Of a DNA stretch of 50,834 bases, positions 432 to 44,525 are shown piece after piece. The DNA is from an uncultured Clostridium sp. (GTDB taxonomy: Bacteria; Bacillota_I; Bacilli_A; RF39; UBA660), in the NCBI GenBank assembly GCA_945788325.1, contig CALZLL010000001.1, positions 1 to 50,834 on the forward strand, in the 5' to 3' direction. The notes beneath the pieces were generated by a model. It was not told the DNA's origin. It was given only the letters and a program-made list of their open reading frames with translations, and searched no databases. The first letter of the stretch is position 1; every line of letters begins with the position of its first letter. The translations under genes were made by a program, and so were the position numbers.

Positions 432-819
432 GCTTAACTCTAAAGGGCAAAGTTTGGCAATCTTTGTAATTTTTGTACCAGTTTTTATCATGATTGGGAC
501 TTTGGTTGTAGATGTTTCTTTTGCGCGTTACAACGTAAGAAAATTAGATAATATAAATAAGTTAGTAATAAATTATGGATTAGATCATATAGAAAGTGAT
601 CCTTATGATAACATGGTTGATTTGATTTATAAGAATGATTCTGAAGTAGATAATTACGAGATAAAAATTAACCTTGAAGAAAAGAAAATAAACGTTAATA
701 TTTCAAAATCTACAAAAGGTTTTTTTGGTAGTATTGTTGGAAAAGAAATATATAAAGAAAAAAGTTTTTTTATAGGATACATAAAAGATGATAAAAAAAT
801 AATAGAAAAGGATGATTAG
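424..819 (+). CDS. TadG/Tad_N-like pilus assembly protein
   Basis: N-terminus KGQSLAIFVIFVPVFIMIGTLVVDVSFARY resembles the TadG-like N-terminal domain. Overlaps the preceding gene by 8 nt (translational coupling). Confidence 0.5.
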   Translation: MNRLNSKGQSLAIFVIFVPVFIMIGTLVVDVSFARYNVRKLDNINKLVINYGLDHIESDPYDNMVDLIYKNDSEVDNYEIKINLEEKKINVNISKSTKGFFGSIVGKEIYKEKSFFIGYIKDDKKIIEKDD

Positions 820-820
820 T

Positions 821-1609
821 ATGAAAAAAGAAGCTGCAAAGGTAATAACTGTTTTTTCATGTAAAGGTGGTGTTGGAAAAACAACTACCACACTTAATTT
901 AGCAGGTATATATAGTTTGATGGATAAAAAGGTTTTAATTATGGATCTTGATTTAAATAGTGGTGGTGTAGCGGTTAGTTTAAACGTTGATGTATCAAAA
1001 ACAATTTATAACGTAGTTGATGACATGGGTAACAATCGCTTTGATGATATTGAAAATTACGTTTGTAAATATAATGATAAAATAGATGTTTTATCATCGC
1101 CAAAAGACCCAAGAAACGCTATGAAAATAGATTCTAAGTACATTGGGCTTGTTATTACTTCTGCCATGTATAAATATGATGTTATTTTAATAGATACATC
1201 TCATAATTTAAGTCCAATATCACTTACGGCATTAGATAAAAGTGATAATACGTTATTTATGGTTACTAATGATCCGGTTGATTTAAAGAATGCAAAAAGT
1301 ATGATTTCAATATTTAAAGATACTGAAAATGATAATTATAAAGTTGTTTTTAATTCTTCTAAAGATACTGGTAAAGATTACTTTTCATTATTTGATGTTA
1401 AGAACATTATTAAGCATAACATTGATTATACGATAGATAAAAGTTTTTATATAAAAGACATTGATAAATATGTTATAGATGGTGATATTCTTACTTTAAA
1501 TAAAAAAATAAGAATATCTAAAAAAAGTGATGTTATGAAACTTACCAAGTTAGCTAATGCTTTAATAGAACCAAAGCCAAAAAAAATAGAGGTGAAAAAA
1601 GATGCCTAA
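821..1609 (+). CDS. TadZ/CpaE-like ParA/MinD-family ATPase
   Basis: Deviant Walker A CKGGVGKTTTTLNLAG and position directly upstream of the CpaF-like ATPase. The ORF track starts at 812; the ATG at 821 has better spacing to RBS aaagga. Confidence 0.7.
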   Translation: MKKEAAKVITVFSCKGGVGKTTTTLNLAGIYSLMDKKVLIMDLDLNSGGVAVSLNVDVSKTIYNVVDDMGNNRFDDIENYVCKYNDKIDVLSSPKDPRNAMKIDSKYIGLVITSAMYKYDVILIDTSHNLSPISLTALDKSDNTLFMVTNDPVDLKNAKSMISIFKDTENDNYKVVFNSSKDTGKDYFSLFDVKNIIKHNIDYTIDKSFYIKDIDKYVIDGDILTLNKKIRISKKSDVMKLTKLANALIEPKPKKIEVKKDA

Positions 1610-2936
1610 GAAAAAATTAATGGAAGAATTTGAAATAAAAGAAGAAAAAGTAACTACTAAACCAGTTGCGGATTATGATATATTTAAAGATAAAGAATTA
1701 TTGGATAATTTAAGAAATAGTATTATTTCTAATTTGATTGATGATAAAATTCCTGATAATAAACTGCTTCATGAATACATAAATGATGAAATTGATAAGG
1801 CTCTTTTAGGATATGATTTAACAAATTTAGAACGTAGTCATATATTTAACTTAATTGATAATGAAATAAATGGTTATGGTCCTATTACGGAGCTGTTAGA
1901 AGACCCTAATATTACCGAAATAATGATTAATGGAGAAAATGAAGTTTATGTTGAAATAGATGGTCAAATTAGTAAGGATGAATCTGTTTCATTCATTAAT
2001 GATGAACACATCATAAGAACCATTCAAAAAATAGTTCAACCATTAGGTAGAACGATAGATACCGCAAATCCTATGGTAGATGCAAGATTAGAAGATGGAT
2101 CAAGACTTAATGCGGTAATACCACCATTGTCATTAAAAGGACCAGTTGTTACGATAAGAAAGTTTAGACGAGATATGGAAACGATTGAAGACTTTTTAAG
2201 AACTGGTGCAATGACACCTTACATGGCACGTTTTTTAGATGCTGCGGTAAGATCTAAACTAAACATAATTATATGTGGTGGTACAGGCGCTGGTAAAACA
2301 ACTTTACTTAATGCTTTATCTTCATTCATTGGTGATCATGAACGTATTATTACAATTGAAGATGCAGCTGAGTTAAGACTTAATCAATCACACGTAATTA
2401 GTCTTGAAACAAGGTTAGTAAATTATGAAGGTACCGGAGAAGTTACCATTCGTGATTTAGTTATAAATTCACTTCGTATGAGACCAGATAGAATAATTGT
2501 TGGAGAAGTACGTGGTAAAGAAGCATTTGATATGCTTCAAGCCATGAATACCGGACATGATGGTTCTCTTACAACGATGCATGCTAATAGTCCAGTAGAG
2601 GCTTTAAACAGACTAGAAACCATGGTTTTAATGGCTGGTATGGAAATACCAATTAAAGCTATTAGAGAATATATTGAAAACGCAATAGATTTAGTAGTTA
2701 ACGTATCAAGATTATCAGATGGAAGAAGAAAAGTAACTAGTATTTGTGAAGTAGATGGTTTTAAAGAAGATATGATTGAATTAAAAGAAATATTTAATTT
2801 TAAACAAACTGGTTTAACAAATGCTGGAGAAGTAGATGGATCATTTGATCTTAAAAAACGTATTCCAAAGGTTTATAACAAAATTAAAAGTAGAGGTATA
2901 GATGATTTAGACGACATATTTAAATTTAAAAAATAG
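1602..2936 (+). CDS. tadA: Tad secretion ATPase (CpaF/TadA family, VirB11-like)
   Basis: Walker [15 protein letters not shown], then [21 protein letters not shown] and [13 protein letters not shown], which are typical of CpaF/TadA. Confidence 0.9.
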
Positions 2937-2948
2937 GAGGTAATAAAG

Positions 2949-3941
2949 ATGAATATATTTATCATTCAGACAATTATAATGGTACTTTTAGCTTTTATTA
3001 TTTTCTATTTAATATTATATAATAATAGTCTAAAGTTAGAGAAAAGAATATCAAAGTATAGTATTGAATCTATAAAAAGTGATTCAGTTTCATTATTTGA
3101 TTTAATATATAACGATTATAAAAAATTAATAGCATATCTTACTAAAAAACTTAATAAAAGTGCTATTATAAAAAAATATGCAACTAAATATAATAAGTAT
3201 ATAACTTATGAAAATGATAAAGATATAGTTGCTATGGATTACGTTAGCAACAAAGTATTAATTTGCATACTATTTATTTTAATTATTATATTTGCAAGAA
3301 TAATAGAAGGAATATTTCCTAGTTTTATAGATTTATTAATATCATCATTATTAGGCTTTTTTTCAATTGATATATATTTTAAATTCTATGATTATATTAA
3401 GAAAAAACAGATAGAACAAGACTTATTAAACGCTATTATCATAATGAATAATGCGTTTCGTTCTGGTAGAAGTACGATGCAAGCTATTGAAATAGTAGCT
3501 AAAGAACTAAAAGGACCAATAAGTCAAGAATTTAAAAAGATGCATTTAGAAATAAGTTATGGCTTATCACTTGACGTTGTATTTGAAAGATTTTCAAAAA
3601 GGATAGAATCAGAAGAGGTAAGCTATATTACGTCATCTCTTAGTATTTTAAATAAAACTGGCGGTAACATAATAAAGGTTTTTTCTTCAATAGAAAAAAT
3701 GCTATTTAATAAAAGAAAGTTAAAGCAAGAAATGAAGTCTCTTACGTCATCAGCTAATATGATAAGTAAAGTTTTACTTATTATGCCTTTTGTTTTTGTA
3801 GCGGTTATTTCTCTTTTGAACCCAACTTATTTTACACCTTTATTTAATACTAGCTTAGGTAATATTTTACTTATTATAATAGTAATAATATATGCATTAT
3901 ATGCCTTCATAGTTAACAAAATCATGAAAGTGAGGTTTTAG
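2949..3941 (+). CDS. tadB: TadB-like type II secretion system F-domain membrane protein
   Basis: Polytopic membrane protein with a T2SSF-like cytoplasmic helical region (AFRSGRSTMQAIEIVAKEL). Follows tadA. Confidence 0.7.
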   Translation: MNIFIIQTIIMVLLAFIIFYLILYNNSLKLEKRISKYSIESIKSDSVSLFDLIYNDYKKLIAYLTKKLNKSAIIKKYATKYNKYITYENDKDIVAMDYVSNKVLICILFILIIIFARIIEGIFPSFIDLLISSLLGFFSIDIYFKFYDYIKKKQIEQDLLNAIIIMNNAFRSGRSTMQAIEIVAKELKGPISQEFKKMHLEISYGLSLDVVFERFSKRIESEEVSYITSSLSILNKTGGNIIKVFSSIEKMLFNKRKLKQEMKSLTSSANMISKVLLIMPFVFVAVISLLNPTYFTPLFNTSLGNILLIIIVIIYALYAFIVNKIMKVRF

Positions 3942-3943
3942 TA

Positions 3944-4648
3944 ATGAAACAAAAAAAATCATTTATATACCGCATTTATCGTGAAAAAGATATAAAGAAA
4001 ATTGATGATAAAATAAATTTATTTGGAGTTTCTAAAAAATTTACAACCGAGTATTTTATGAACTTTAGATTATACTCATCAATGATAGTGTTTTTATTAA
4101 TATTTGTATTTGCTAACTTTGGAGCATTACTAGCACCAATTATAACTGTGTTATGGTATGTTTTAGTAGGTTATACCATGATTGATAAGCCTCTTAAGAA
4201 AAGAGAAAGAAAGTTAGATAACGAAGCATATTATTATTTTGAAGTATTAACTTTGGCGTTAGAATCTGGAAGAAATCTAGAAAATGCTATAAAAATGGCA
4301 TGTAAATACATAGATTCTGAAATATCAGATGAGTTTAAAGAAACAATAAAACAAGTTAACTTTGGTAAATCTTTAACGGAAAGTTTATCGCTTATGAGTT
4401 ATCGTATTCCTAGTTTAACAATTAATAATATTATTTTAAACATGGAACAATCAAATCTTTTTGGTAATAGTATAATAGAAACTATGTATAACCAATTAGA
4501 CTTCTTAAAAGATAAACAAGTCATGGACATAAAATCTCAAATTAATAAAATTCCAAATAAGATAAGTATCTTTTCAGTATTATTTTTTATACCTCTTATT
4601 CTACTTATAATATTAGGACCAGTATTAATAGAATTTATTTTAGGATAA
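3944..4648 (+). CDS. tadC: TadC-like type II secretion system F-domain membrane protein
   Basis: Second T2SSF-like membrane protein (LALESGRNLENAIKMA) immediately after tadB. Confidence 0.65.
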   Translation: MKQKKSFIYRIYREKDIKKIDDKINLFGVSKKFTTEYFMNFRLYSSMIVFLLIFVFANFGALLAPIITVLWYVLVGYTMIDKPLKKRERKLDNEAYYYFEVLTLALESGRNLENAIKMACKYIDSEISDEFKETIKQVNFGKSLTESLSLMSYRIPSLTINNIILNMEQSNLFGNSIIETMYNQLDFLKDKQVMDIKSQINKIPNKISIFSVLFFIPLILLIILGPVLIEFILG

Positions 4649-4757: not shown

Positions 4758-6059
4758 ATGGAAAAAGAAAGAAGAGCAAAAACATTAAGTATAGTAGCTT
4801 TAATAGTTGCAATATTAGGCTTAACAATAGCGTTTGCAACACTATCACAAACACTAACAATAAATGGAAGCGCATACTTAAACGCAACAAAGTGGGGAAT
4901 AAAGTTTGAAAACTTATCATCACCAATAAAGGTAGGTGATGCAACAGTTACTGGGGAAGCTAAAATAAATGAAAGTACCTACGTAGAAATAGCAAATATG
5001 AACGTTAATTTAAAAACACCAGGAGATAGTGTTACATATAACGTAGATTTAGTAAACGAAGGAACAATAAATGCAAAAATAGATGAAATAGTAAAAACTA
5101 CAACACCTGATTATTTATCATTTAAAGTAATAAAACAAGATAATAAAGAATTAGAAGAAGGATATGTATTAGGTAAAGAAACAAGAATACCCTTAAGAAT
5201 AGAAATAGAATTTAAGAAAGATATAACAAAAGAAGACTTACCAAAAGAAGCAATTACAATAGAACTATCATATGCTTTAACATTTGTACAAACGGATGAA
5301 ACCGCTACAAGCATTGGACAAACTCCATCATCAGCATGTACAATATTTGATAAAAAAGATACATACCAAGTAGGAGATGAAATAGCCCTATGTAATAATG
5401 ATACAAATAAATCAGAAGACTTCTATGTAATAAGTGATAATGGAGATACAGTAACAGCGCTAGCTAAGTATAATTTACTTGTTGGTAATGAAGTTGAAAT
5501 AGATAATTTTGAAGATTATAATATAGTTAGAAATGATCCGATAGATTCATCAACTACTGGATATGGATTGCAAAATAGTAGTGCAAAAGCATTTGTATTA
5601 GATAACACTATCTGGACTGGAACAATAGTATTTGCCGAAGATAAAAATAAGGGTAATGGATATTGGGCACCAACTGGTAGTCTCTTAAGTACGTATGGAA
5701 CAAGTTATCCAGCATACGTATTTGATGAAAATTCATTATTATATGAACCATTAAAGAATTATGAATCATATATAAAAACAACATTAGGAAAAACAAGTGT
5801 AAATACTAGTTTATTAACCTATGAGCAAGCTACTAGCTTAGGTTGTGTTAAAGATAATCGTACATGTGAAGCTGCACCTAGTTGGGTATATGAAACGTCA
5901 TACTGGCTTGGTTCTGCTCTCGGTGGAAGCTCTGTTCCAGGTGTTGAGTCGTATGGCGGTTTCGAATGCTGGTATGACTTCAACTACGACATCTACTTCA
6001 ACAGTGGCTACCCTCTCGGTTTGCGTCCAGTCATAACAATAGCTAAAACTGATTTATAA
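4758..6059 (+). CDS. Surface protein paralog A: N-terminal signal-anchor, beta-rich N-domain (TasA/camelysin-like by motif, tentative), C-terminal lectin-fold-like domain ending in a hypervariable segment
   Basis: N-terminus MEKERRAKTLSIVALIVAILGLTIAFATLSQTLTINGSA, then PGDSVTYNVDLVNEGT. C-terminal pattern LLTYEQATSLGC ... SYWLGSA-(variable)-GLRPVITI resembles DUF1566 / C-type-lectin-fold DGR targets. The gene is certain; the functional call is tentative. Confidence 0.5.
   Translation: MEKERRAKTLSIVALIVAILGLTIAFATLSQTLTINGSAYLNATKWGIKFENLSSPIKVGDATVTGEAKINESTYVEIANMNVNLKTPGDSVTYNVDLVNEGTINAKIDEIVKTTTPDYLSFKVIKQDNKELEEGYVLGKETRIPLRIEIEFKKDITKEDLPKEAITIELSYALTFVQTDETATSIGQTPSSACTIFDKKDTYQVGDEIALCNNDTNKSEDFYVISDNGDTVTALAKYNLLVGNEVEIDNFEDYNIVRNDPIDSSTTGYGLQNSSAKAFVLDNTIWTGTIVFAEDKNKGNGYWAPTGSLLSTYGTSYPAYVFDENSLLYEPLKNYESYIKTTLGKTSVNTSLLTYEQATSLGCVKDNRTCEAAPSWVYETSYWLGSALGGSSVPGVESYGGFECWYDFNYDIYFNSGYPLGLRPVITIAKTDL
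5919..6032 (+). other. Candidate DGR variable region (VR-A) within paralog A
   Basis: Of 38 codons, 18 end in C (ctc agc ggc ttc tgc gac ttc aac tac gac atc tac ttc aac ggc tac ctc gtc), versus 2 of the first 38 codons of the same gene. 20 of 114 nt are A. The segment ends 9 codons before the stop. Confidence 0.55.
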
Positions 6060-6195: not shown

Positions 6196-7260
6196 ATGAA
6201 AAAGGATATAGTTGAATACTTGGGATTTGATGAGGAAGAAGAAAAGAAAAAAGTAGGAAGACCAAAACTTGCTGATAAAGAAACAAAAAGAAAATCTTTA
6301 ATTATAGCTAGTGTATCTTTTTGTGCAGTTATTCTATTACTAATTTTTGGATATGGAACTTTATTTGGATTTAAAAATTTAAATTTAAAAGGTACCGTTA
6401 GTAATAATGAAATAAATCAAGATACGTTAGTTGAAGAAATAAAACCACTTGTTAAAGATATAACTCTTAAAACTGGTACTGCAAGAAAGGTATATTTAAC
6501 TGTTTTACCAGCTAGTGCAAACGATAAATCTATAAGTTATAAAAGTTCTGATGAATCTGTTGCGATAGTTGATAATGAAGGTAAAGTTACTGGAATATCA
6601 GTTGGTAATGCTACTATAACTGCTACTACTAATGATGGTTCTAACTTAAGTACCACATTTAAAGTAAAGGTAATTAAAAACGCAGAAGGAAAATGTGTTT
6701 TTACATCACTTTCAAAGACTTCAAATGGTATAGAATATGAAACTGAATGTAATAATGCAAAGATAAAGGAAATACAATATAAAGTAGGAGACGATAACTT
6801 TGAAAAGTTACTTACTAAAAAGACAACTGATGAAGTTAAGTTTTCTAAAGATCAATTAGATAATAAAATAACTTTTAAAATAGTATATTATCCAAATAAT
6901 AGTAAAATTACTAAATACGAAGTTAAAACATTAAATGGCAAAGAAAAAACTACTAAAGCACCTACTGGAAATTGCTCTCTTATATTAAAAGATGTAAAGG
7001 CATCATCTGCTAAGTATGATATAACGTGTGATAATGCTAGTGTTACTAAAATTGCATATAAGATAGGAAATGGTAGCTATATTGGTCTTGAATCAAGTAG
7101 TTTAGCTGACACAATATTATATGAAGAAAGTGATGTAACAAGGGTTATATACTTTAATATAGAATATGTAATTGATGGAACTAATAATGTTAAAACAATA
7201 ACAAAAAGTAGTATAATAGAAAAGAAAATAATAAATAATGATGTAGAAGGAGAAATGTAA
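6196..7260 (+). CDS. Membrane-anchored protein: N-terminal KVGRPKLA motif, TM helix, Big_2-like Ig domain, two Cys-pair repeat modules
   Basis: EEKKKVGRPKLADKETKRKS followed by hydrophobic LIIASVSFCAVILLLIFGYG. SDESVAIVDNEGKVTGISVGNATITATTNDGS is Big_2-like. Modules GKCVF...ECNNAKIKEIQYKVG and GNCSL...TCDNASVTKIAYKIG. Confidence 0.5.
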   Translation: MKKDIVEYLGFDEEEEKKKVGRPKLADKETKRKSLIIASVSFCAVILLLIFGYGTLFGFKNLNLKGTVSNNEINQDTLVEEIKPLVKDITLKTGTARKVYLTVLPASANDKSISYKSSDESVAIVDNEGKVTGISVGNATITATTNDGSNLSTTFKVKVIKNAEGKCVFTSLSKTSNGIEYETECNNAKIKEIQYKVGDDNFEKLLTKKTTDEVKFSKDQLDNKITFKIVYYPNNSKITKYEVKTLNGKEKTTKAPTGNCSLILKDVKASSAKYDITCDNASVTKIAYKIGNGSYIGLESSSLADTILYEESDVTRVIYFNIEYVIDGTNNVKTITKSSIIEKKIINNDVEGEM

Positions 7261-7261
7261 A

Positions 7262-7645
7262 ATGGCAAAGAAGGAAGAAAAAAATAAAGTAGGAAGACCA
7301 AAACTAGCTGATAGTAAAACAAAAAAGGAATCAATATTTATATGTATTTTTACTATGGTTGTAATAACAATTGTAGCTATTTTGGGATATAATATTTTAA
7401 CGATTGATTTTAATCCCAAATATAATGTTGGTTCAATTTATAATACTCATGTTTCATCTTGTGTAATTGAAGATAAAAAAATTGATTGTGGACCTAACGT
7501 TACTTATATGAAGTATAAATTAGATAATGAAGGTTGGATAGAAGTTAGTAAACAAGATAAAAGCATAGAAGTAGCACTTGATAATAATAAAAAAGTTGAG
7601 TTTTGCTATAAAACTGATAAAACTGATATAAAATGTAATAAATAA
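7262..7645 (+). CDS. Small membrane-anchored protein: N-terminal KVGRPKLA motif plus one Cys-pair module
   Basis: KEEKNKVGRPKLADSKTKKES followed by TM IFICIFTMVVITIVAILGY. C-terminal CVIEDKKIDC...YMKYKLDNEGW. Confidence 0.5.
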   Translation: MAKKEEKNKVGRPKLADSKTKKESIFICIFTMVVITIVAILGYNILTIDFNPKYNVGSIYNTHVSSCVIEDKKIDCGPNVTYMKYKLDNEGWIEVSKQDKSIEVALDNNKKVEFCYKTDKTDIKCNK

Positions 7646-11190: not shown

Positions 11191-12216
11191 GTGATTGGCG
11201 TAATTGAAAGAATAAAAAATAGTGTTTTACTTAAGTGTAGCACATTAAACGACGAAGTTATTTCTAAAACGTTGGATGACTTAATTAATACTAGAATATA
11301 TCGTTTTTCAGAAGAAATGGTTAGTTTAATTGGAGATTTCGAAAGTTCTATAACCGAGGAAATATTAAGAAATGAAGTTAGTAAAATCATTAAAACTCCA
11401 ATAATAAAGAAAATAAAAAGAAAGTTATTTATTGATTCATTAGCACTTCAAATAACTAACGATACGTTTATTGAAGACTATGTTAACAATAAAATTACAT
11501 TAGAAAAATTAGAAAAAACATATATAAAAGAACTAAATAAAAACAAAAGTTCTAATCAACTAAACATGACTGAGGATTTGAATCTTGAAGAAATAATAAA
11601 TGAACTTAGAATATACGTTGATAAAAACTTTAATTCAAAGTTAAGTGAAAATAATTTTTTAGTTAGTTCAATTAATAATTTAGTATCTAACTTAAAAGAA
11701 AATCTAGAACAAGATTTAAAAGAAATGATAGATGGGACCGATTTGAAATATTATGATATTTTAAAAACAGAATTACTAAGTGAAATAGAAGAGAAAAAAG
11801 AAGATGAAGGGGAAGAAAACATGATGGATAATATAAATGAAACAAGAATATCTGATTTGGTAAAAGAAGAAAATATACCAAATAAATTTGATAAATATGA
11901 TGATATGACTTTATTTAATAAAATAATTTTAAGTCTTAATACGGAAGAAGAAAAATTATCTAGAAAAGAAGAAAAATTAAGACTTAGAAAAGAAGATGTA
12001 GATAAAAGATTATCTGATACTAATAAAAATATTGAAGCTAATATCGAAAGAGAAAATAAACTATCTCAAAGAAAGATGGAATTAAATGCTAGAGAACTTG
12101 AAATTAATTCTAAGTTATCTGAAGCTGAAGTTATCTTCCTTAACATGAAGCCATTAATTAAAGGACTAAGCAAGATTAAGGACTCTAACGAAAATGGAGG
12201 TAGTGAAAATGAGTAA
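11191..12216 (+). CDS. Acidic coiled-coil protein, unknown function
   Basis: GTG start after RBS aaggagg. K/E-rich heptad-like C-terminal half. No recognisable catalytic motif. Confidence 0.4.
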   Translation: MIGVIERIKNSVLLKCSTLNDEVISKTLDDLINTRIYRFSEEMVSLIGDFESSITEEILRNEVSKIIKTPIIKKIKRKLFIDSLALQITNDTFIEDYVNNKITLEKLEKTYIKELNKNKSSNQLNMTEDLNLEEIINELRIYVDKNFNSKLSENNFLVSSINNLVSNLKENLEQDLKEMIDGTDLKYYDILKTELLSEIEEKKEDEGEENMMDNINETRISDLVKEENIPNKFDKYDDMTLFNKIILSLNTEEEKLSRKEEKLRLRKEDVDKRLSDTNKNIEANIERENKLSQRKMELNARELEINSKLSEAEVIFLNMKPLIKGLSKIKDSNENGGSENE

Positions 12217-21583: not shown

Positions 21584-22032
21584 ATTATATAGAAGTGTTT
21601 AATGAATATGATAAAGATATAAAAGAATTAAATATTCTTAAAGATTTTATTAATTATGCATCAGAAAAACTTACGTTGAAAAACGTTATGTTTAATGTTA
21701 TAATTATAGACAATGATAGTATACATAAAATAAATAAAGAGTATCGAGGAATTGATAGACCGACTGATGTTATTACTTTTGCATTAGAGGATGATAAGAA
21801 AATAGATACACCGGAAGTAAGAATATTAGGTGATATATATATTTCTTATGATAAAGTTATTTCTCAAGCTCAAGAATATGGACATAGTACAAAAAGAGAA
21901 TTATGCTTTTTAGGGGTACATGGTTTATTACATTTATTGGGTTACGATCATATGAATAAAAAAGATGAAGAGAAAATGTTTAGTTTACAAAAGGAGTTGT
22001 TAGATAGTTATGGCATCAAAAAAGAAAGTTAA
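21580..22032 (+). CDS. ybeY: rRNA maturation endoribonuclease YbeY
   Basis: Zinc-binding motif HGLLHLLGYDH. ATG at 21580 follows RBS ggagg. Confidence 0.9.
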   Translation: MNYIEVFNEYDKDIKELNILKDFINYASEKLTLKNVMFNVIIIDNDSIHKINKEYRGIDRPTDVITFALEDDKKIDTPEVRILGDIYISYDKVISQAQEYGHSTKRELCFLGVHGLLHLLGYDHMNKKDEEKMFSLQKELLDSYGIKKES

Positions 22033-22447
22033 GGTTGAAATATCACGTGGTAAATACGTTGAAGAACAAGGATTTAAAAAAATAGGTTTTAAAAGAATAC
22101 TAAAGAGTTTTAAATATTCGTTTGACGGGTTAAAATACGCTTATTTACATGAACAAAGTTTACTATTGCACGTAATTGTAATGGCAATAATAATAGCTTG
22201 TGGTTTTGGGTTTCACATTACTCCAATTCAGTGGGTAATAACTTTGGTAATGGGTGCTTTAATTTTAGTAACAGAGTTATTTAACACATCAATTGAAGCC
22301 GTTGTTGATATGGTAACAGAAGAATATCATCCACTAGCTAAAGTAGCTAAAGATACTGCATCTGCTGCTTGTTTTGTTGCAGACATGATGGCAGCAGGTA
22401 TGTGGCTTGTTGTGTTTGTACCAAAAATAATGGCATTATTTAGGTAA
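22010..22447 (+). CDS. dgkA: Prokaryotic-type diacylglycerol/undecaprenol kinase (DgkA family)
   Basis: FKYSFDGLKYAY..EQS ... ELFNTSIEAVVD ... AKDTASAA. Conserved position after ybeY. Confidence 0.8.
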   Translation: MASKKKVKVEISRGKYVEEQGFKKIGFKRILKSFKYSFDGLKYAYLHEQSLLLHVIVMAIIIACGFGFHITPIQWVITLVMGALILVTELFNTSIEAVVDMVTEEYHPLAKVAKDTASAACFVADMMAAGMWLVVFVPKIMALFR

Positions 22448-22451
22448 TCGT

Positions 22452-22775
22452 ATGAAAAAGATAAAAAGTTTTTTTGATCGTGAACAAAACCTTTTAGTTC
22501 ATATAATTGCAACCATATGCGTAACAATTATAGGAATTATATTTAGATTAAACTTAGTAGAATGGCTTTTAATTTATTCGATGGTTGCTTTTGTAATAAC
22601 ATCAGAACTTATAAATTCATCAATAGAACTTGCGGTAGATTTATATACAAATAAGTTTAATCCCTTAGCTATGGTAGCTAAAGATGTAGCAGCAGGAGCC
22701 GTTGTAATATCTGCTTTTACAGCTATTTGTGTAGGACTATACGTTTTTGTACCAAAGATATTAGAATTATTATGA
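22452..22775 (+). CDS. Second, shorter DgkA-family paralog
   Basis: ELINSSIELAVDLYTNKFNPLAMVAKDVAAGAVVISAF parallels the upstream DgkA. Its N-terminal region before the first TM helix is much shorter than in the upstream DgkA. Confidence 0.6.
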   Translation: MKKIKSFFDREQNLLVHIIATICVTIIGIIFRLNLVEWLLIYSMVAFVITSELINSSIELAVDLYTNKFNPLAMVAKDVAAGAVVISAFTAICVGLYVFVPKILELL

Positions 22776-22904: not shown

Positions 22905-24197
22905 GTGGAAAAAGAAAGAAGAGTAAAAGCACTAGCAATAGTAGTACTTGTAATAGCAGTGCTAGGGCTTACAATAGCATTTGCAGCATTATCACAAACA
23001 CTAACAATAAATGGTAGTGCAAAACTAGATGCATCAAAATGGGGACTTAAGTTTGATAATCTAGTATTAGCATCAGGAAATGAATATGTAGAAGGAACTG
23101 CAAATATAAAAACAGATGATAATACTGTAATAGAAAATATGAACGTAAGATTAACAACACCAGGAGATAAAGTAGTATATACGGTAGACTTAGTAAATGA
23201 AGGAAGTATAAATGCTAAGATAGATAATATAGTAAAAACAGTATTAACAACCGAGCAAGAAAAATATTTATCATTTAAAGTATTAAAAGAAAATAATGAA
23301 GAATTAAATGAAGGATATGTATTAGGTAAAGAAACAAGAATACCACTAAAAATAGAAATAGAATTTAAAAAAGATATAACGAAAGAAGACTTACCAAAAG
23401 AAACAAGTACAATAACGTTATCATATGGTGTAACATTTGTACAAACAGATGAAAAGATAGCAACAACAGGACAAGGACCTACAACAGCATGTACAATATT
23501 TGAAAAGAAAAGTGCATATAATGTAGGAGATGAAATAGCCCTATGTAATAATGATACAAATAAATCAGAAGACTTCTATGTAATAAGTGATAATGGAGAT
23601 ACAGTAACAGCTCTTGCTAAGTATAATTTACTTGTTGGAAATGAAATCGAACTTAATAATAAAGAAGAAGTTATTGTATCTAATATTGTTAGAAAGGATC
23701 CAATAGATCCATCAACACCTGGATATGGATTGCAAAGTAGTGAATCAAAAGGATTTATATTAGATAATACTGTATTTATCGGAATAATAAACTTTGCTGA
23801 AAATAATACTATTGGATATTGGGCAGAATCAAGAACTGCACTTTTAAGTAAATATGGAACAAGTTTTCCAGCATATGTATTTGATGAAAATTCATTATTA
23901 TATGAACCATTAAAGAATTATGAATCATATATAAAAACAACATTAGGAAAAACAAGTGTAAGTACTAGTTTATTATCTTATGAGCAAGCTACTAACTTAG
24001 GTTGTGATAAAGCTAATAAAACATGTGAAGTTGCACCAAGTTGGGTATATGAAACATCTTACTGGCTTGGTTCTGCTGCCAATGGTCTCCACGTGATGGG
24101 CGTTGCATCGAATGGTTCCTTAGCGAATCACAGCTTCTACACCGAATTCCGTTTAGGTCTTCGCCCAGTTATAACAATATCAAAAACTGATTTATAA
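22905..24197 (+). CDS. Surface protein paralog B (same architecture as 4758..6059)
   Basis: GTG start after RBS aggagg. The N-terminus and several internal blocks are near-identical to paralog A at nucleotide level. C-terminal SYWLGSA-(variable)-GLRPVITISKTDL. Confidence 0.5.
   Translation: MEKERRVKALAIVVLVIAVLGLTIAFAALSQTLTINGSAKLDASKWGLKFDNLVLASGNEYVEGTANIKTDDNTVIENMNVRLTTPGDKVVYTVDLVNEGSINAKIDNIVKTVLTTEQEKYLSFKVLKENNEELNEGYVLGKETRIPLKIEIEFKKDITKEDLPKETSTITLSYGVTFVQTDEKIATTGQGPTTACTIFEKKSAYNVGDEIALCNNDTNKSEDFYVISDNGDTVTALAKYNLLVGNEIELNNKEEVIVSNIVRKDPIDPSTPGYGLQSSESKGFILDNTVFIGIINFAENNTIGYWAESRTALLSKYGTSFPAYVFDENSLLYEPLKNYESYIKTTLGKTSVSTSLLSYEQATNLGCDKANKTCEVAPSWVYETSYWLGSAANGLHVMGVASNGSLANHSFYTEFRLGLRPVITISKTDL
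24078..24170 (+). other. Candidate DGR variable region (VR-B) within paralog B
   Basis: Of 31 codons, 12 end in C (gcc ctc cac ggc tcc cac agc ttc tac acc ttc cgc). 18 of 93 nt are A. Same position in the domain as VR-A but 21 nt shorter. Confidence 0.5.
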
Positions 24198-24201
24198 TAA
24201 A

Positions 24202-24227
24202 AAATCCAATTTATTTGGATTTTTTTA
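24202..24227 (+). terminator. Rho-independent terminator after paralog B
   Basis: aaatccaa-tttat-ttggattt followed by ttttt. Confidence 0.75.
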
Positions 24228-24307
24228 ATAATTAATAAACTAATATTAAAGTATTTAACTTTATTTTAATTATTATGTTATAATTATCTTAGTTAAGGAG
24301 ATATTTT

Positions 24308-33442: not shown

Positions 33443-34363
33443 ATGAAAGAATGGCTTTTAAAGGATGAAAAGAATAAAGTTGGAAGACCAAGATTAGCTA
33501 GTGACGAAGTTTTAAAAAAAGCTAAAATATCAATTGCGGTAGGTTTTATAATTAGTTTTGTTCTTATGTTTTCCTTTTTTAGCATCTTAAAAGGCACAAC
33601 TCCTACAAAATACGCATATTCTCTTACTTTAGAAAAACTATTTGGAGAGTTAACAAATAAAAATGGTTTTATAGTAAGTGATTATTATGATAAAAATGAT
33701 GATTATGTTATGGAATTTAAAGTTCCAGACGTAATATATAATTATTCAGGATCTTATAAATATACATTATATGAACTTAATAATAACGAATGGAAAGAAA
33801 AAGATAGTAAAACAATTGATAAAGAAGAAAGAAGTTTTAAGATAAAAGTTAAATCTTTAAAAAACCAAAATAAAACTTGGAAGATAAAGTTACAAATTAT
33901 AAATGCTACCAATATAAAAGAAGCTTATAACCCATCTTCTTGGCAATTTAATGATTCTAAAAATACTAAAGATATGTATGCGTATAAAGTATTTACTGTA
34001 AAAGGATATTATAGCCCGGTATTAAATGAAGAATTAAAAGAATCTAAAAAGAGTAATGATAAAATAACGATAGATACTAAAAAAGAAGATCCTAGAAGTT
34101 TTATTGTAAATTTAAATGATGGGGTATATAACGTGGTTGTTAAATATACTGATACAGCTTCTAAGGAAGTTTTACTAGCAAATGATAAAGAAGTAAGTGG
34201 AATAAAAGAGTATGTAATACCTGGATTAGATCGCTCTACTAAGGTGGTATTTAAAATTTATGGTGAAGATGTTAAAAGTAAGAGATTATCTAATTGGCAA
34301 TATCAAGAAAGTAAAGGATATATTACTAATAGTTATGTTTTAAAACCAGAAAAAGCATATTAA
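33443..34363 (+). CDS. Membrane-anchored protein with N-terminal KVGRPRLA motif (third family member)
   Basis: DEKNKVGRPRLASDEVLKKAK followed by TM ISIAVGFIISFVLMFSFFSIL, then a beta-rich ectodomain containing YTLYELNNNEWKEKD, which resembles YKLDNEGWIEV of 7262..7645. Confidence 0.5.
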   Translation: MKEWLLKDEKNKVGRPRLASDEVLKKAKISIAVGFIISFVLMFSFFSILKGTTPTKYAYSLTLEKLFGELTNKNGFIVSDYYDKNDDYVMEFKVPDVIYNYSGSYKYTLYELNNNEWKEKDSKTIDKEERSFKIKVKSLKNQNKTWKIKLQIINATNIKEAYNPSSWQFNDSKNTKDMYAYKVFTVKGYYSPVLNEELKESKKSNDKITIDTKKEDPRSFIVNLNDGVYNVVVKYTDTASKEVLLANDKEVSGIKEYVIPGLDRSTKVVFKIYGEDVKSKRLSNWQYQESKGYITNSYVLKPEKAY

Positions 34364-43156: not shown

Positions 43157-43216
43157 AAAAAAGCATTGCTTTTTGAACTACCTTATATAGGGTAGACATC
43201 AAAAGCAATGCTTTTT
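43157..43216. terminator. Nested inverted repeat / bidirectional terminator between convergent pilD and pilB
   Basis: Outer arms aaaagcattgctttt and aaaagcaatgctttt are perfect reverse complements. They enclose an inner hairpin ctacc-ttatata-gggtag. Confidence 0.65.
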
Positions 43217-44525
43217 ATAAATCTAACATTTCCATACCATCATCTTCAACATTGTTATTAGAATTTTGATTAACGGAAGGTTGAGATGCTTGTTCTTGGT
43301 TTGATGAAGAAACATCTTTACCAGAAACGATTCTTACTGATTCATCATCAAGTTCTACTAAACGAAGAATTTCTTCAATTGTTGTTGTATTTTGTAATAC
43401 TTTTTGAAGACCATCTTGTAAAAGGGTAGTAGTATCTCCTTTATATACTAGCTTTCTTAATTCTTCTTTTGGCATACCATTTGATATTGCGTCTCTTATT
43501 TCTTGAGATATTACTAATACTTCATGAATAGCAATTCTTCCTTTATAACCACCAACGCACTCAGAACATCCTTCTGCATATGCAAGTTCGGTTATATCAA
43601 CACCTAGATTTGCTTTTATAAGCTTTTTTTCATAATCAATAGCAGGTCTTTTTTTCATACAATGAGGGCATATTCTTCTAGCTAATTTTTGTGATACAAT
43701 ACCATTTAATGAACTAGCAAGTAGGTATGTTTCAACATCCATATCTTTTAAACGTTCAATAGTATTTAATGCGTTATTTGTATGCAAGGTAGATAATACT
43801 AAGTGACCAGTAATAGAAGCTCTAACTGCTATTTTTGCCGTTTCATCATCACGAATTTCACCAATCATTATTATATCTGGGTCTTGACGTAATATAGAAC
43901 GTAAAACTTCAGCAAAGGTAAGTCCAATTTCACTATTAACCTGAATCTGGTTCATACCCGCAATATTCATTTCTACTGGATCTTCAACCGTAACTAAGTT
44001 AACTTCAGATGTGTTAAGAGTTTGAAGCATTGCGTAAACCGTAGTTGATTTACCTGATCCGGTAGCGCCAGTTACCAGTATGATACCATTAGGTTCTTTT
44101 ATTAATTCTTCAATCTTTTTTAAATTATTAGGTGTAAGACCTAATGCATTAAGACCTTTCATAGAAGTAGAATAATCTAAGATACGAATAACTATTTTTT
44201 CACCTTCATTTGTAGGAAGAGAAGAAACACGCATGTCTAAATTAATATCTTTTATGGTTGTTTTAATAGCACCATCCTGTGGAAGCCTTGATTCAGTAAT
44301 ATCCATACCAGATATAATCTTAAGTCTAGCAATTAAATTTTTTCTAATAGCCTCAGGAATCAAAACGTAATCTATTAGTACACCATCTATTCTAAACCTT
44401 ACTTTAATTGTTGTTTCGGTAGGATCGAAGTGGATGTCACTAGTACCAGCTTGCGCTGCAATATATATTATTTCATTTACTATTTCAGTAATAGGTAATT
44501 TAGTAAAATCTATTTGTTTTAACAT
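43215..44525 (-). CDS. pilB: Type IV pilus assembly ATPase (PilB/GspE family), short form
   Basis: Walker A GATGSGKSTT, Asp box, Walker B IIMIGEIRD, His box LSTLHTN, tetracysteine CPHC...CSEC. No long N-terminal GSPII domain. Q/N/S/acidic C-terminal tail. Confidence 0.85.
   Translation of the reverse strand: MLKQIDFTKLPITEIVNEIIYIAAQAGTSDIHFDPTETTIKVRFRIDGVLIDYVLIPEAIRKNLIARLKIISGMDITESRLPQDGAIKTTIKDINLDMRVSSLPTNEGEKIVIRILDYSTSMKGLNALGLTPNNLKKIEELIKEPNGIILVTGATGSGKSTTVYAMLQTLNTSEVNLVTVEDPVEMNIAGMNQIQVNSEIGLTFAEVLRSILRQDPDIIMIGEIRDDETAKIAVRASITGHLVLSTLHTNNALNTIERLKDMDVETYLLASSLNGIVSQKLARRICPHCMKKRPAIDYEKKLIKANLGVDITELAYAEGCSECVGGYKGRIAIHEVLVISQEIRDAISNGMPKEELRKLVYKGDTTTLLQDGLQKVLQNTTTIEEILRLVELDDESVRIVSGKDVSSSNQEQASQPSVNQNSNNNVEDDGMEMLDL

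Follow-up and report, generated by a model that had tools for sequence, protein, structure and literature searches.

Close to the 3' end of a gene on contig CALZLL010000001.1, from an uncultured Clostridium sp. (GenBank assembly GCA_945788325.1), lies a genuine variable region (VR) of a diversity-generating retroelement (DGR), in a cellular target family that we have not found described. The contig was analysed over its whole length of 50,834 nt and is called the window here. The VR, at 24078-24170, is called VR-B and belongs to paralog B, a protein with a sister (paralog A, carrying VR-A) in the same window. VR-B is probably DGR-written DNA that is now an orphan, a fossil allele that is frozen and most likely not being rewritten. 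It is read as a fossil because the window is without a template repeat (TR) and a reverse transcriptase (RT), because the scaffold of VR-B is broken, because the VRs of sister strains are static, and because the cassette has been lost at a related locus (L001). We infer that the cassette of the window's own genome is lost or inactive.

The region stands out by its composition. At 24078-24170, 18 of 93 nt are A, the GC content is 51.6%, and 12 of the 31 codons are NNC codons; the adenine and codon counts had already been made in a reading from the letters alone (the sequence-only reading) and were reproduced. The NNC background in the genes of the window is 5.9% (14,320 codons), which gives a binomial P ~9e-8 for the enrichment in VR-B, and 31-codon windows with at least 12 NNC codons are confined to the 3' ends of the two paralogs. 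A GC content of at least 0.516 is reached in 20 of 50,742 sliding 93-nt windows, all of them at 5866-5988 or 24058-24170. The compositional signal at VR-B is real and local. The comparison of the two VRs made by the sequence-only reading was also reproduced: the first 18 codons agree at 23 of 54 positions, 22 of them with G, C or T; the flanks are nearly identical (on the 5' side the 18 nt TACTGGCTTGGTTCTGCT are the same in both, and on the 3' side ATAACAATA...AAAACTGATTTATAA is conserved); and VR-B is shorter by 7 codons (21 nt). That the positions common between VRs are not adenines is even more marked in three other VRs of the lineage (L001a, L001b and L002), which have 48 common positions with zero A. 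From these three, VR-B differs at 9 of the 48 common and 27 of the 42 variable positions (P=1e-5).

Templates for this protein family were recovered in relatives. The expected TR coding (…SANNNNNVWNVNSNGNFNNNNF…) was predicted from aligned VR DNA, and a profile of synthetic peptides was searched against a protein collection. It matched real short open reading frames (ORFs) that overlap TRs (P0124, P0125, P0127-P0130), and the contigs of these ORFs, which come from public metagenomes, hold complete cassettes. As an example, locus L077 (NCBI GCA_963600415.1) has the 3' end of a family target, a TR, an ORF with a MutS_I domain, bAvd and an RT (RVT_1 E=2e-20, with the motifs IGNMTSQ and YMDD), and between its VR and TR there are mismatches at 10 adenines and at 0 of the 64 non-A sites. 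Locus L078, from another sample, has the same TR and a different VR, with 12 mismatches at A and 0 at non-A sites, and in L076 there are 22 at A and 1 at non-A. Loci L098-L101, reached via RT homologues, have the chromosomal order UPF0154, target, TR, MutS-like gene (MSL), bAvd, RT, parE, parC. Here, L099 and L100 have one common TR and different VRs, with the full cassette between UPF0154 and parE, and all VR/TR mismatches in L100 are at template adenines. The targets in L076, L077, L078 and L100 align with the C-terminal half of paralog B at 46-53% identity. Judged by these sequences, the protein family of paralog B is a proven DGR target. The proposal of the sequence-only reading that VR-B is a DGR-type VR at the same domain position as VR-A is borne out by these homologues, which lie directly 5' of a TR, a MutS-like gene, bAvd and an RT. 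In this DGR clade, RT homologues are mostly found on contigs of 2-4 kb; the cassettes therefore assemble and bin poorly, and when a metagenome-assembled genome of these Bacilli shows no DGR, this is weak evidence of true absence.

Comparison with the real TRs sets the boundaries of VR-B. Homology to the templates begins with TGG at 24063 and ends with CCA at 24167, with the variable codons at 24078-24164, and the GTT at 24168-24170 already is part of the VR-specific 3' flank. The divergence point was read from alignments in L076, L077, L098 and L100: homology between TR and VR ends at CCA, after which VRs go on with GTTATAAC... (24168 in the window) and TRs with ACTTT.. or GATTT... The block TGGCTTGGTTCTGCT on the 5' side is identical in paralog A, also precedes the TR in L076, and is the junction of an orphan VR copy in L001. 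The parts of the gene and its 3' end are as follows.

22905..24197, plus strand: gene of paralog B, 430 aa, with a GTG start, taken from the ORF list
24063..24077, plus strand: invariant 5' homology block TGGCTTGGTTCTGCT (W-L-G-S-A), directly 5' of the variable codons
24078..24167, plus strand: VR-B in the strict sense, 30 codons that correspond to the variable part of the 93-nt TRs, ending in CGC CCA
24096..24098, plus strand: scaffold break ATG (Met), where all recovered TRs and intact VRs have TGG (Trp)
24168..24197, plus strand: VR-specific 3' flank GTTATAACAATATCAAAAACTGATTTATAA (V-I-T-I-S-K-T-D-L-stop), at the position of an element like the initiation of mutagenic homing (IMH) site
24199..24225, plus strand: 11-bp hairpin with a T-run, starting 2 nt past the stop (RNAfold -9.8 kcal/mol)

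In the cassette-adjacent targets, the stop codon is followed by a short hairpin (ATCATTC-GTAA-GAATGAT, CACC-GTTA-GGTG or TCACC-GTAA-GGTGA), then by TTATAGGNGC and a second hairpin. The stems of the short hairpin vary compensatorily between lineages, and it was seen in L077 (658-720), L098, L099/L100, L001 (11282-11330), L095, L097 and L083; it is probably a DGR target-site structure. Neither paralog in the window has this short hairpin after its stop. Paralog B lacks both it and TTATAGGNGC, though the GTTATAAC... flank is present, and has a terminator-type stem instead: the hairpin at 24199..24225, which looks like an intrinsic terminator, occupies the site where cassette-adjacent targets have the short conserved hairpin.

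VR-B has the length and frame of five of the recovered templates (TR76, TR77, TR79, TR95 and TR97), each consisting of GCT and 30 codons ending in CGN CCA, 93 nt in all. Where all five have an A (23 sites), VR-B keeps 9 and is substituted at 14 (61%), and where all five have the same non-A base (26 sites), it matches 21 and is changed at 5 (19%). This contrast of 14/23 with 5/26 has a Fisher P=0.004, and about 18 codons of the VR are variable. The match to the scaffold is imperfect, with 3-9 breaks. The scaffold changes in VR-B are TGG->ATG, GGC->GGT, TTC->TTA and CTC->TTA, and its adenine-free 3' block reads CTT CGC CCA where the ortholog has TTG CGG CCG; as far as the scaffold of the lineage can be read, adenine mutagenesis would be unable to produce these changes. 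None of the TRs recovered elsewhere (n=8) is cognate to VR-B, the non-A mismatches numbering 20-27. A sequence pattern suited to seeking the cognate TR is TGGAAYGTNAAYNNNAAYGGNAAYTTY.

The window itself has none of the other DGR parts. A 30-mer scan at >=70% identity for a TR in the window returned only self-matches and the other paralog, an A-tolerant ungapped scan found no TR-like copy there, and neither a degenerate TR pattern with 3 mismatches nor the conserved TR-upstream motif found a TR. No ORF of the window has a YxDD or IGxxxSQ motif, an RT (RVT_1) is absent among the window ORFs scanned with Pfam, and Avd was not found in the window. The interpretation of the sequence-only reading is thus supported in part: with TR, RT and Avd all missing from the window, VR-B does not make up a demonstrable DGR locus. 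RT motif scans of 73 loci (71 of them related, ±10 kb) found none. One scan each of IMG/VR viral contigs gave 0 matches for the VR scaffold pattern and 0 for the degenerate TR pattern, and a long scaffold pattern, which was too strict, gave 0 matches in GTDB genomes.

The comparison between strains shows VRs that do not move. In the cluster of orthologs at the B locus (P0003, P0262-P0264), four members have one identical VR and 14-15 residue differences in the N-terminal half, and in the clusters of P0002 and P0007 the VR is likewise constant across members. The pattern that the sequence-only reading had named as speaking against a DGR is seen in part, since sister alleles share an identical VR and differ elsewhere in the gene; this concerns sister alleles and not that of the window, for which the contig index has no second sample on record. 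In other lineages VRs do vary between samples (L077 vs L078, L099 vs L100). The only cassette-type locus recovered in the window's lineage is L001. At 11282-11666 (the same as L102 7282-7666) it retains the target, the short post-stop hairpin and the TR-upstream spacer. In place of the TR there is a VR-like copy, mutated throughout and joined to a B-type 3' flank (97% identity to window 24162-24228), and in L001/L102 no Avd or RT follows this copy. An assembly chimera was considered as the source of the orphan VR in L001 and ruled out, as the independent assembly of another sample (L102) has an identical 774-bp region; the stretch common to TR and VR at the junction is also only ~18 nt. Other loci have further states of this kind. 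In L084 the TR slot is half TR and half VR, in L081, L083 and L086 it has a TR body with a VR flank, and there is no Avd or RT behind any of these chimeras. At L095 (3565-3926) the target and TR are followed by parE, a clean deletion of MSL, Avd and RT. Together this suggests that DGRs are recurrently lost by recombination between TR and VR.

The second VR of the window adds to this picture, and for it two rows are needed.

4758..6059, plus strand: gene of paralog A, 433 aa (P0009), directly 3' of a Tad-like secretion operon
5919..6029, plus strand: VR-A, 37 codons, the canonical 30 plus a 7-codon extra 'F-x5' unit

For the difference of 21 nt between the VRs, the sequence-only reading had offered two templates, a relic VR or an indel. 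The data favour the last of these, an indel after diversification, and place it in VR-A, because VR-B, with 30 codons, has the canonical length seen in every recovered TR, and VR-A has 37 codons. Small in-frame indels are seen elsewhere in the VRs of the family: the VR of L099 has one codon more than its TR, and the VR of L002 lacks one codon. L099 (7734-7830) and L100 (1315-1410) have a common TR, and the extra codon is in the VR of L099 only. Such single-codon cases indicate that small in-frame indels arise in family VRs, and the 7 additional codons of VR-A may have arisen likewise. At the site of the scaffold Trp codon, VR-A has CCA. No recovered TR would give either VR as a clean product, and both look like relics.

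Homologues of paralog B number more than 865. They align well over the N-terminal 390 residues, whereas the part between Y-W-x-x-S-A and G-L-R-P-V-I-T-I is hypervariable, with many N/Y/S/D/G/F residues. Among GTDB genomes, multiple copies are present in gut 'uncultured Bacilli', Clostridium sp. CAG:594, Candidatus Aphodocola and a 'Tenericutes' metagenome-assembled genome; even the closest of these relatives has only ~53% identity to paralog B, so that the species of the window has no representative there. The family occurs in small-genome gut Bacilli of pigs, humans, chickens and mice. There are two classes of members, one with GC-rich/NNC-rich tips like VR-B and one with AT-rich tips with 4-16% NNC, the latter being the product of ordinary drift in these genomes. 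Both paralogs in the window are ~430 aa long with a signal-anchor at the N-terminus, and neither has a Pfam or NCBIfam match. In paralog B the signal-anchor is followed by a beta-sandwich like those of TasA and archaeal pilins and, at the C-terminus, by what is probably a DUF6273-like lectin domain. The AlphaFold model of the whole protein has a predicted local distance difference test (pLDDT) score of 82, and its N-terminal half matches 7pnb, 7ueg and 8aur; as modelled, this half resembles TasA and archaeal pilins. Since the N-terminal sandwich dominated the Foldseek search with the whole protein, the C-terminal 238 aa were modelled alone (pLDDT 91.7). This model matches DUF6273 phage proteins in BFVD with a probability of 0.98-0.99, at template modelling (TM) scores of only 0.3-0.5. 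The TR ORFs of the family match the C-terminal end of Pfam DUF6273, which has been described as a C-lectin-like DGR target domain (PMC10743442). A search of PDB structures with the C-terminal model gave no significant match to Mtd or TvpA, the best match being the T. ramosa IgA protease 9qa6, and a sequence-profile search of the PDB was likewise without matches. As modelled, the C-terminal domain has a DUF6273 / C-type-lectin-like fold, an indirect assignment.

The history that we propose is the following. A chromosomal cassette (target, TR, MutS-like gene, bAvd and RT) would transcribe a 93-nt template rich in Asn codons, the RT would copy it with errors at adenines, and the cDNA would replace the homologous 3' end of the target gene (mutagenic retrohoming). 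In this way ~18 codons would be randomised on the side of the C-type-lectin-like domain that binds ligands, this domain being the tip of a TasA-like surface protein. The copy at 24078-24167 would be a dispersed paralog that was written in the past and later gained several ordinary non-adenine substitutions.

Several observations weigh against the last part of this history, in which writing at VR-B has ended. No TR cognate to the window's lineage has been recovered, and at some sites counted as non-A mismatches the true template may therefore have an adenine or differ synonymously. Of the genome only this 50.8-kb contig is known, so that a cassette elsewhere could easily be missed. VR-B is 58% identical (42% differing) to the VR of its syntenic ortholog while the flanks are ~98% identical, a contrast that at sequence level points to rewriting or replacement in the recent history of the species. 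With 52% GC in a genome of 26% GC, little time is likely to have passed since the writing. Finally, four dispersed paralogs in CAKPGT01 have one common scaffold, which suggests that remote paralogs are diversified in trans in this family.

An alternative that we consider unlikely is that VR-B is a currently active remote target, with an MSL-bAvd-RT cassette elsewhere (e.g. by parE) diversifying A and B in trans. It would fit the chromosomal cassettes of the clade, which assemble on short contigs, as well as the dispersed paralogs with a common scaffold in another genome. The exact TR length of VR-B, its high GC content as a mark of recent writing, and the presence at paralog B of a VR-specific 3' flank, with a hairpin right behind the stop, would fit it too. 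However, the invariant Trp codon TGG is ATG in VR-B and CCA in VR-A, both of which need non-adenine changes, and VR-A is 21 nt longer than any recovered TR, so a single TR could home at most one of the two VRs. In three sister clusters of the lineage the VRs do not change from strain to strain, the only cassette-type locus recovered from the lineage has lost TR and RT, and paralog B is without the short hairpin and TTATAGGNGC of cassette-adjacent targets. A wider version of this alternative, which we hold to be doubtful, is that a single MSL-type DGR by parE still rewrites dispersed paralogs with TasA-like and lectin-tip parts in trans, B included, while the cassette is repeatedly lost by recombination between TR and VR and frozen VR alleles are spread by gene conversion. 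If this were true, VR-B would still be active, as one of several targets in a host-encoded system of adhesin diversification.

It is quite improbable that the allelic differences come mainly from homologous recombination or gene conversion among paralogs, with VR-B arriving in a larger converted segment, although conversion does seem to have taken part. Outside the VR, gene B is 87% identical to its syntenic ortholog (flanks ~98%), and the divergence is concentrated at 23600-24170; this mosaic indicates that gene conversion between paralogs is a second origin of the differences between alleles. At the position of paralog A in a related strain, the gene (P0001, L075 190-1482) is 81% identical to window B, where window A and window B are only 69-72% identical, and the flanks of the B locus of that strain (L002) are ~98% identical to those in the window. 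As P0001 is closer to window B than window A is, paralogs appear to have been exchanged or converted between loci. Chimeras of TR with VR and of VR with VR, in L001, L084 and L081/L083/L086, are in line with this. Conversion explains how a VR moves, but not how it is made: the adenine-specific pattern and the NNC bias still require a DGR origin. It is compatible with a DGR-written fossil and no replacement for it. That VR-B has nothing to do with a DGR and is an ordinary surface loop that evolves fast under diversifying selection and has its codon bias by chance, as the missing TR and RT in the window and the missing Pfam match might be taken to say, is very improbable given an NNC enrichment (P ~9e-8) that is unique in the window, conserved lineage VR positions with zero A, decayed paralogs in which ordinary drift gives AT-rich codons with 8-16% NNC, and homologues whose cognate TRs have 0 non-A mismatches and adjoin an RT, and the recovered TR/VR pairs have already refuted it.

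The window, with a GC content of 26%, is chromosomal DNA of a sporulating Firmicute, and its genes include yqfD, ybeY, two copies of dgkA, era, recO, glyS, polC and mutS-type genes. Paralog B is inserted between dgkA and era, and the same slot in the related strain L002 holds its syntenic ortholog. Just 5' of paralog B, dgkA (prokaryotic diacylglycerol kinase) is duplicated in tandem, with ORFs at 22010-22447 and 22452-22775 that both match DAGK_prokar, and the pair is also kept in L002. Immediately 5' of paralog A, at 812-4648, is the Tad-like secretion operon; its genes, and a further gene of the same type, are given below.

812-1609: CpaE/MinD-type ATPase, Tad-like operon
1602-2936: T2SSE ATPase, Tad-like operon
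2949-3941: T2SSF protein, Tad-like operon
3944-4648: ORF of 234 aa, Tad-like operon
43215-44525, minus strand: second T2SSE gene

The Tad-like operon and the TasA/archaeal-pilin-like N-terminal half hint, by neighbourhood and fold only, that the family is fibre-associated. The window also has a family of 65-nt repeats (6238-6302, 7274-7338 and 33464-33528), which encode a motif like E-E-K-K-K-V-G-R-P-K-L-A-D-K-E-T-K near the start of three ORFs. One of the three is the Big_2 protein 3' of paralog A.

With regard to meaning, DNA written by a DGR can be spotted by composition in raw sequence, even with no template or enzyme nearby. The repertoire of DGRs gains an uncharacterised cellular target family, in which a TasA-like fibre domain is joined to a probable DUF6273-like lectin tip. 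Across relatives a life cycle can be followed, with active cassettes in some, cassette deletion or fusion of TR and VR in others, and orphan VRs that persist as fixed, very different alleles. In surveys, a count of VR, TR and RT triplets alone will miss such fossil VRs, and a count of GC-rich or NNC-rich tips will overcount active systems.

The mechanism of DGRs is well known, and the novelty of VR-B is modest. In the DGR of the Bordetella phage BPP-1 (Mtd, TR, Avd and bRT), the target gene has its VR at the very 3' end, Asn codons (AAC/AAT) are used in the TR and only adenines are changed, and a VR-specific element follows the homology, with a hairpin downstream. The same logic is found in the family described here, including the 3'-end VR, the Asn-codon TR, the VR-specific element and the hairpin. 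In contrast to BPP-1, the family is without a recognisable GC-rich IMH/IMH* pair, the homology just ending at CGN CCA; it has an additional MSL accessory gene; and VR-B is remote from a cassette and has non-adenine changes. The cassettes of the family have the gene content of the 'Architecture D' DGRs, which consist of a MutS-like MSL, avd and an RT (Wu et al. 2018, NAR 46:11, PMC5758913). The family cassettes are like these in having target, TR, MutS_I ORF, bAvd and RT on one strand, in being adenine-specific and in their IGxxxSQ RT. The differences are that the window is without any of these parts, that the family cassette is chromosomal at a fixed site 5' of parE/parC in small-genome gut Bacilli, and that the target, which joins TasA-like and lectin-like parts, has many dispersed paralogs. 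In gut phages, the DUF6273/C-type-lectin targets (Tentaclins, Faecalibacterium prophages; PMC10743442, PMC11792537) have the VR in a lectin-like domain, as is probable here from the matches of the TR ORFs and of the modelled domain to DUF6273. Paralog B itself is below all Pfam thresholds and is a cellular surface protein and not a phage tail protein. The Type V pilus tip adhesin DGRs of Bacteroides (bioRxiv 10.1101/2024.11.15.621889) differ in phylum, fibre type and target domain family. They too belong to gut commensals, are chromosomal, and diversify the tip by which a fibre- or pilus-associated protein binds its ligand, and on the side of the window the likeness is that paralog A adjoins a Tad-like operon and that the N-terminal half is TasA/pilin-like.

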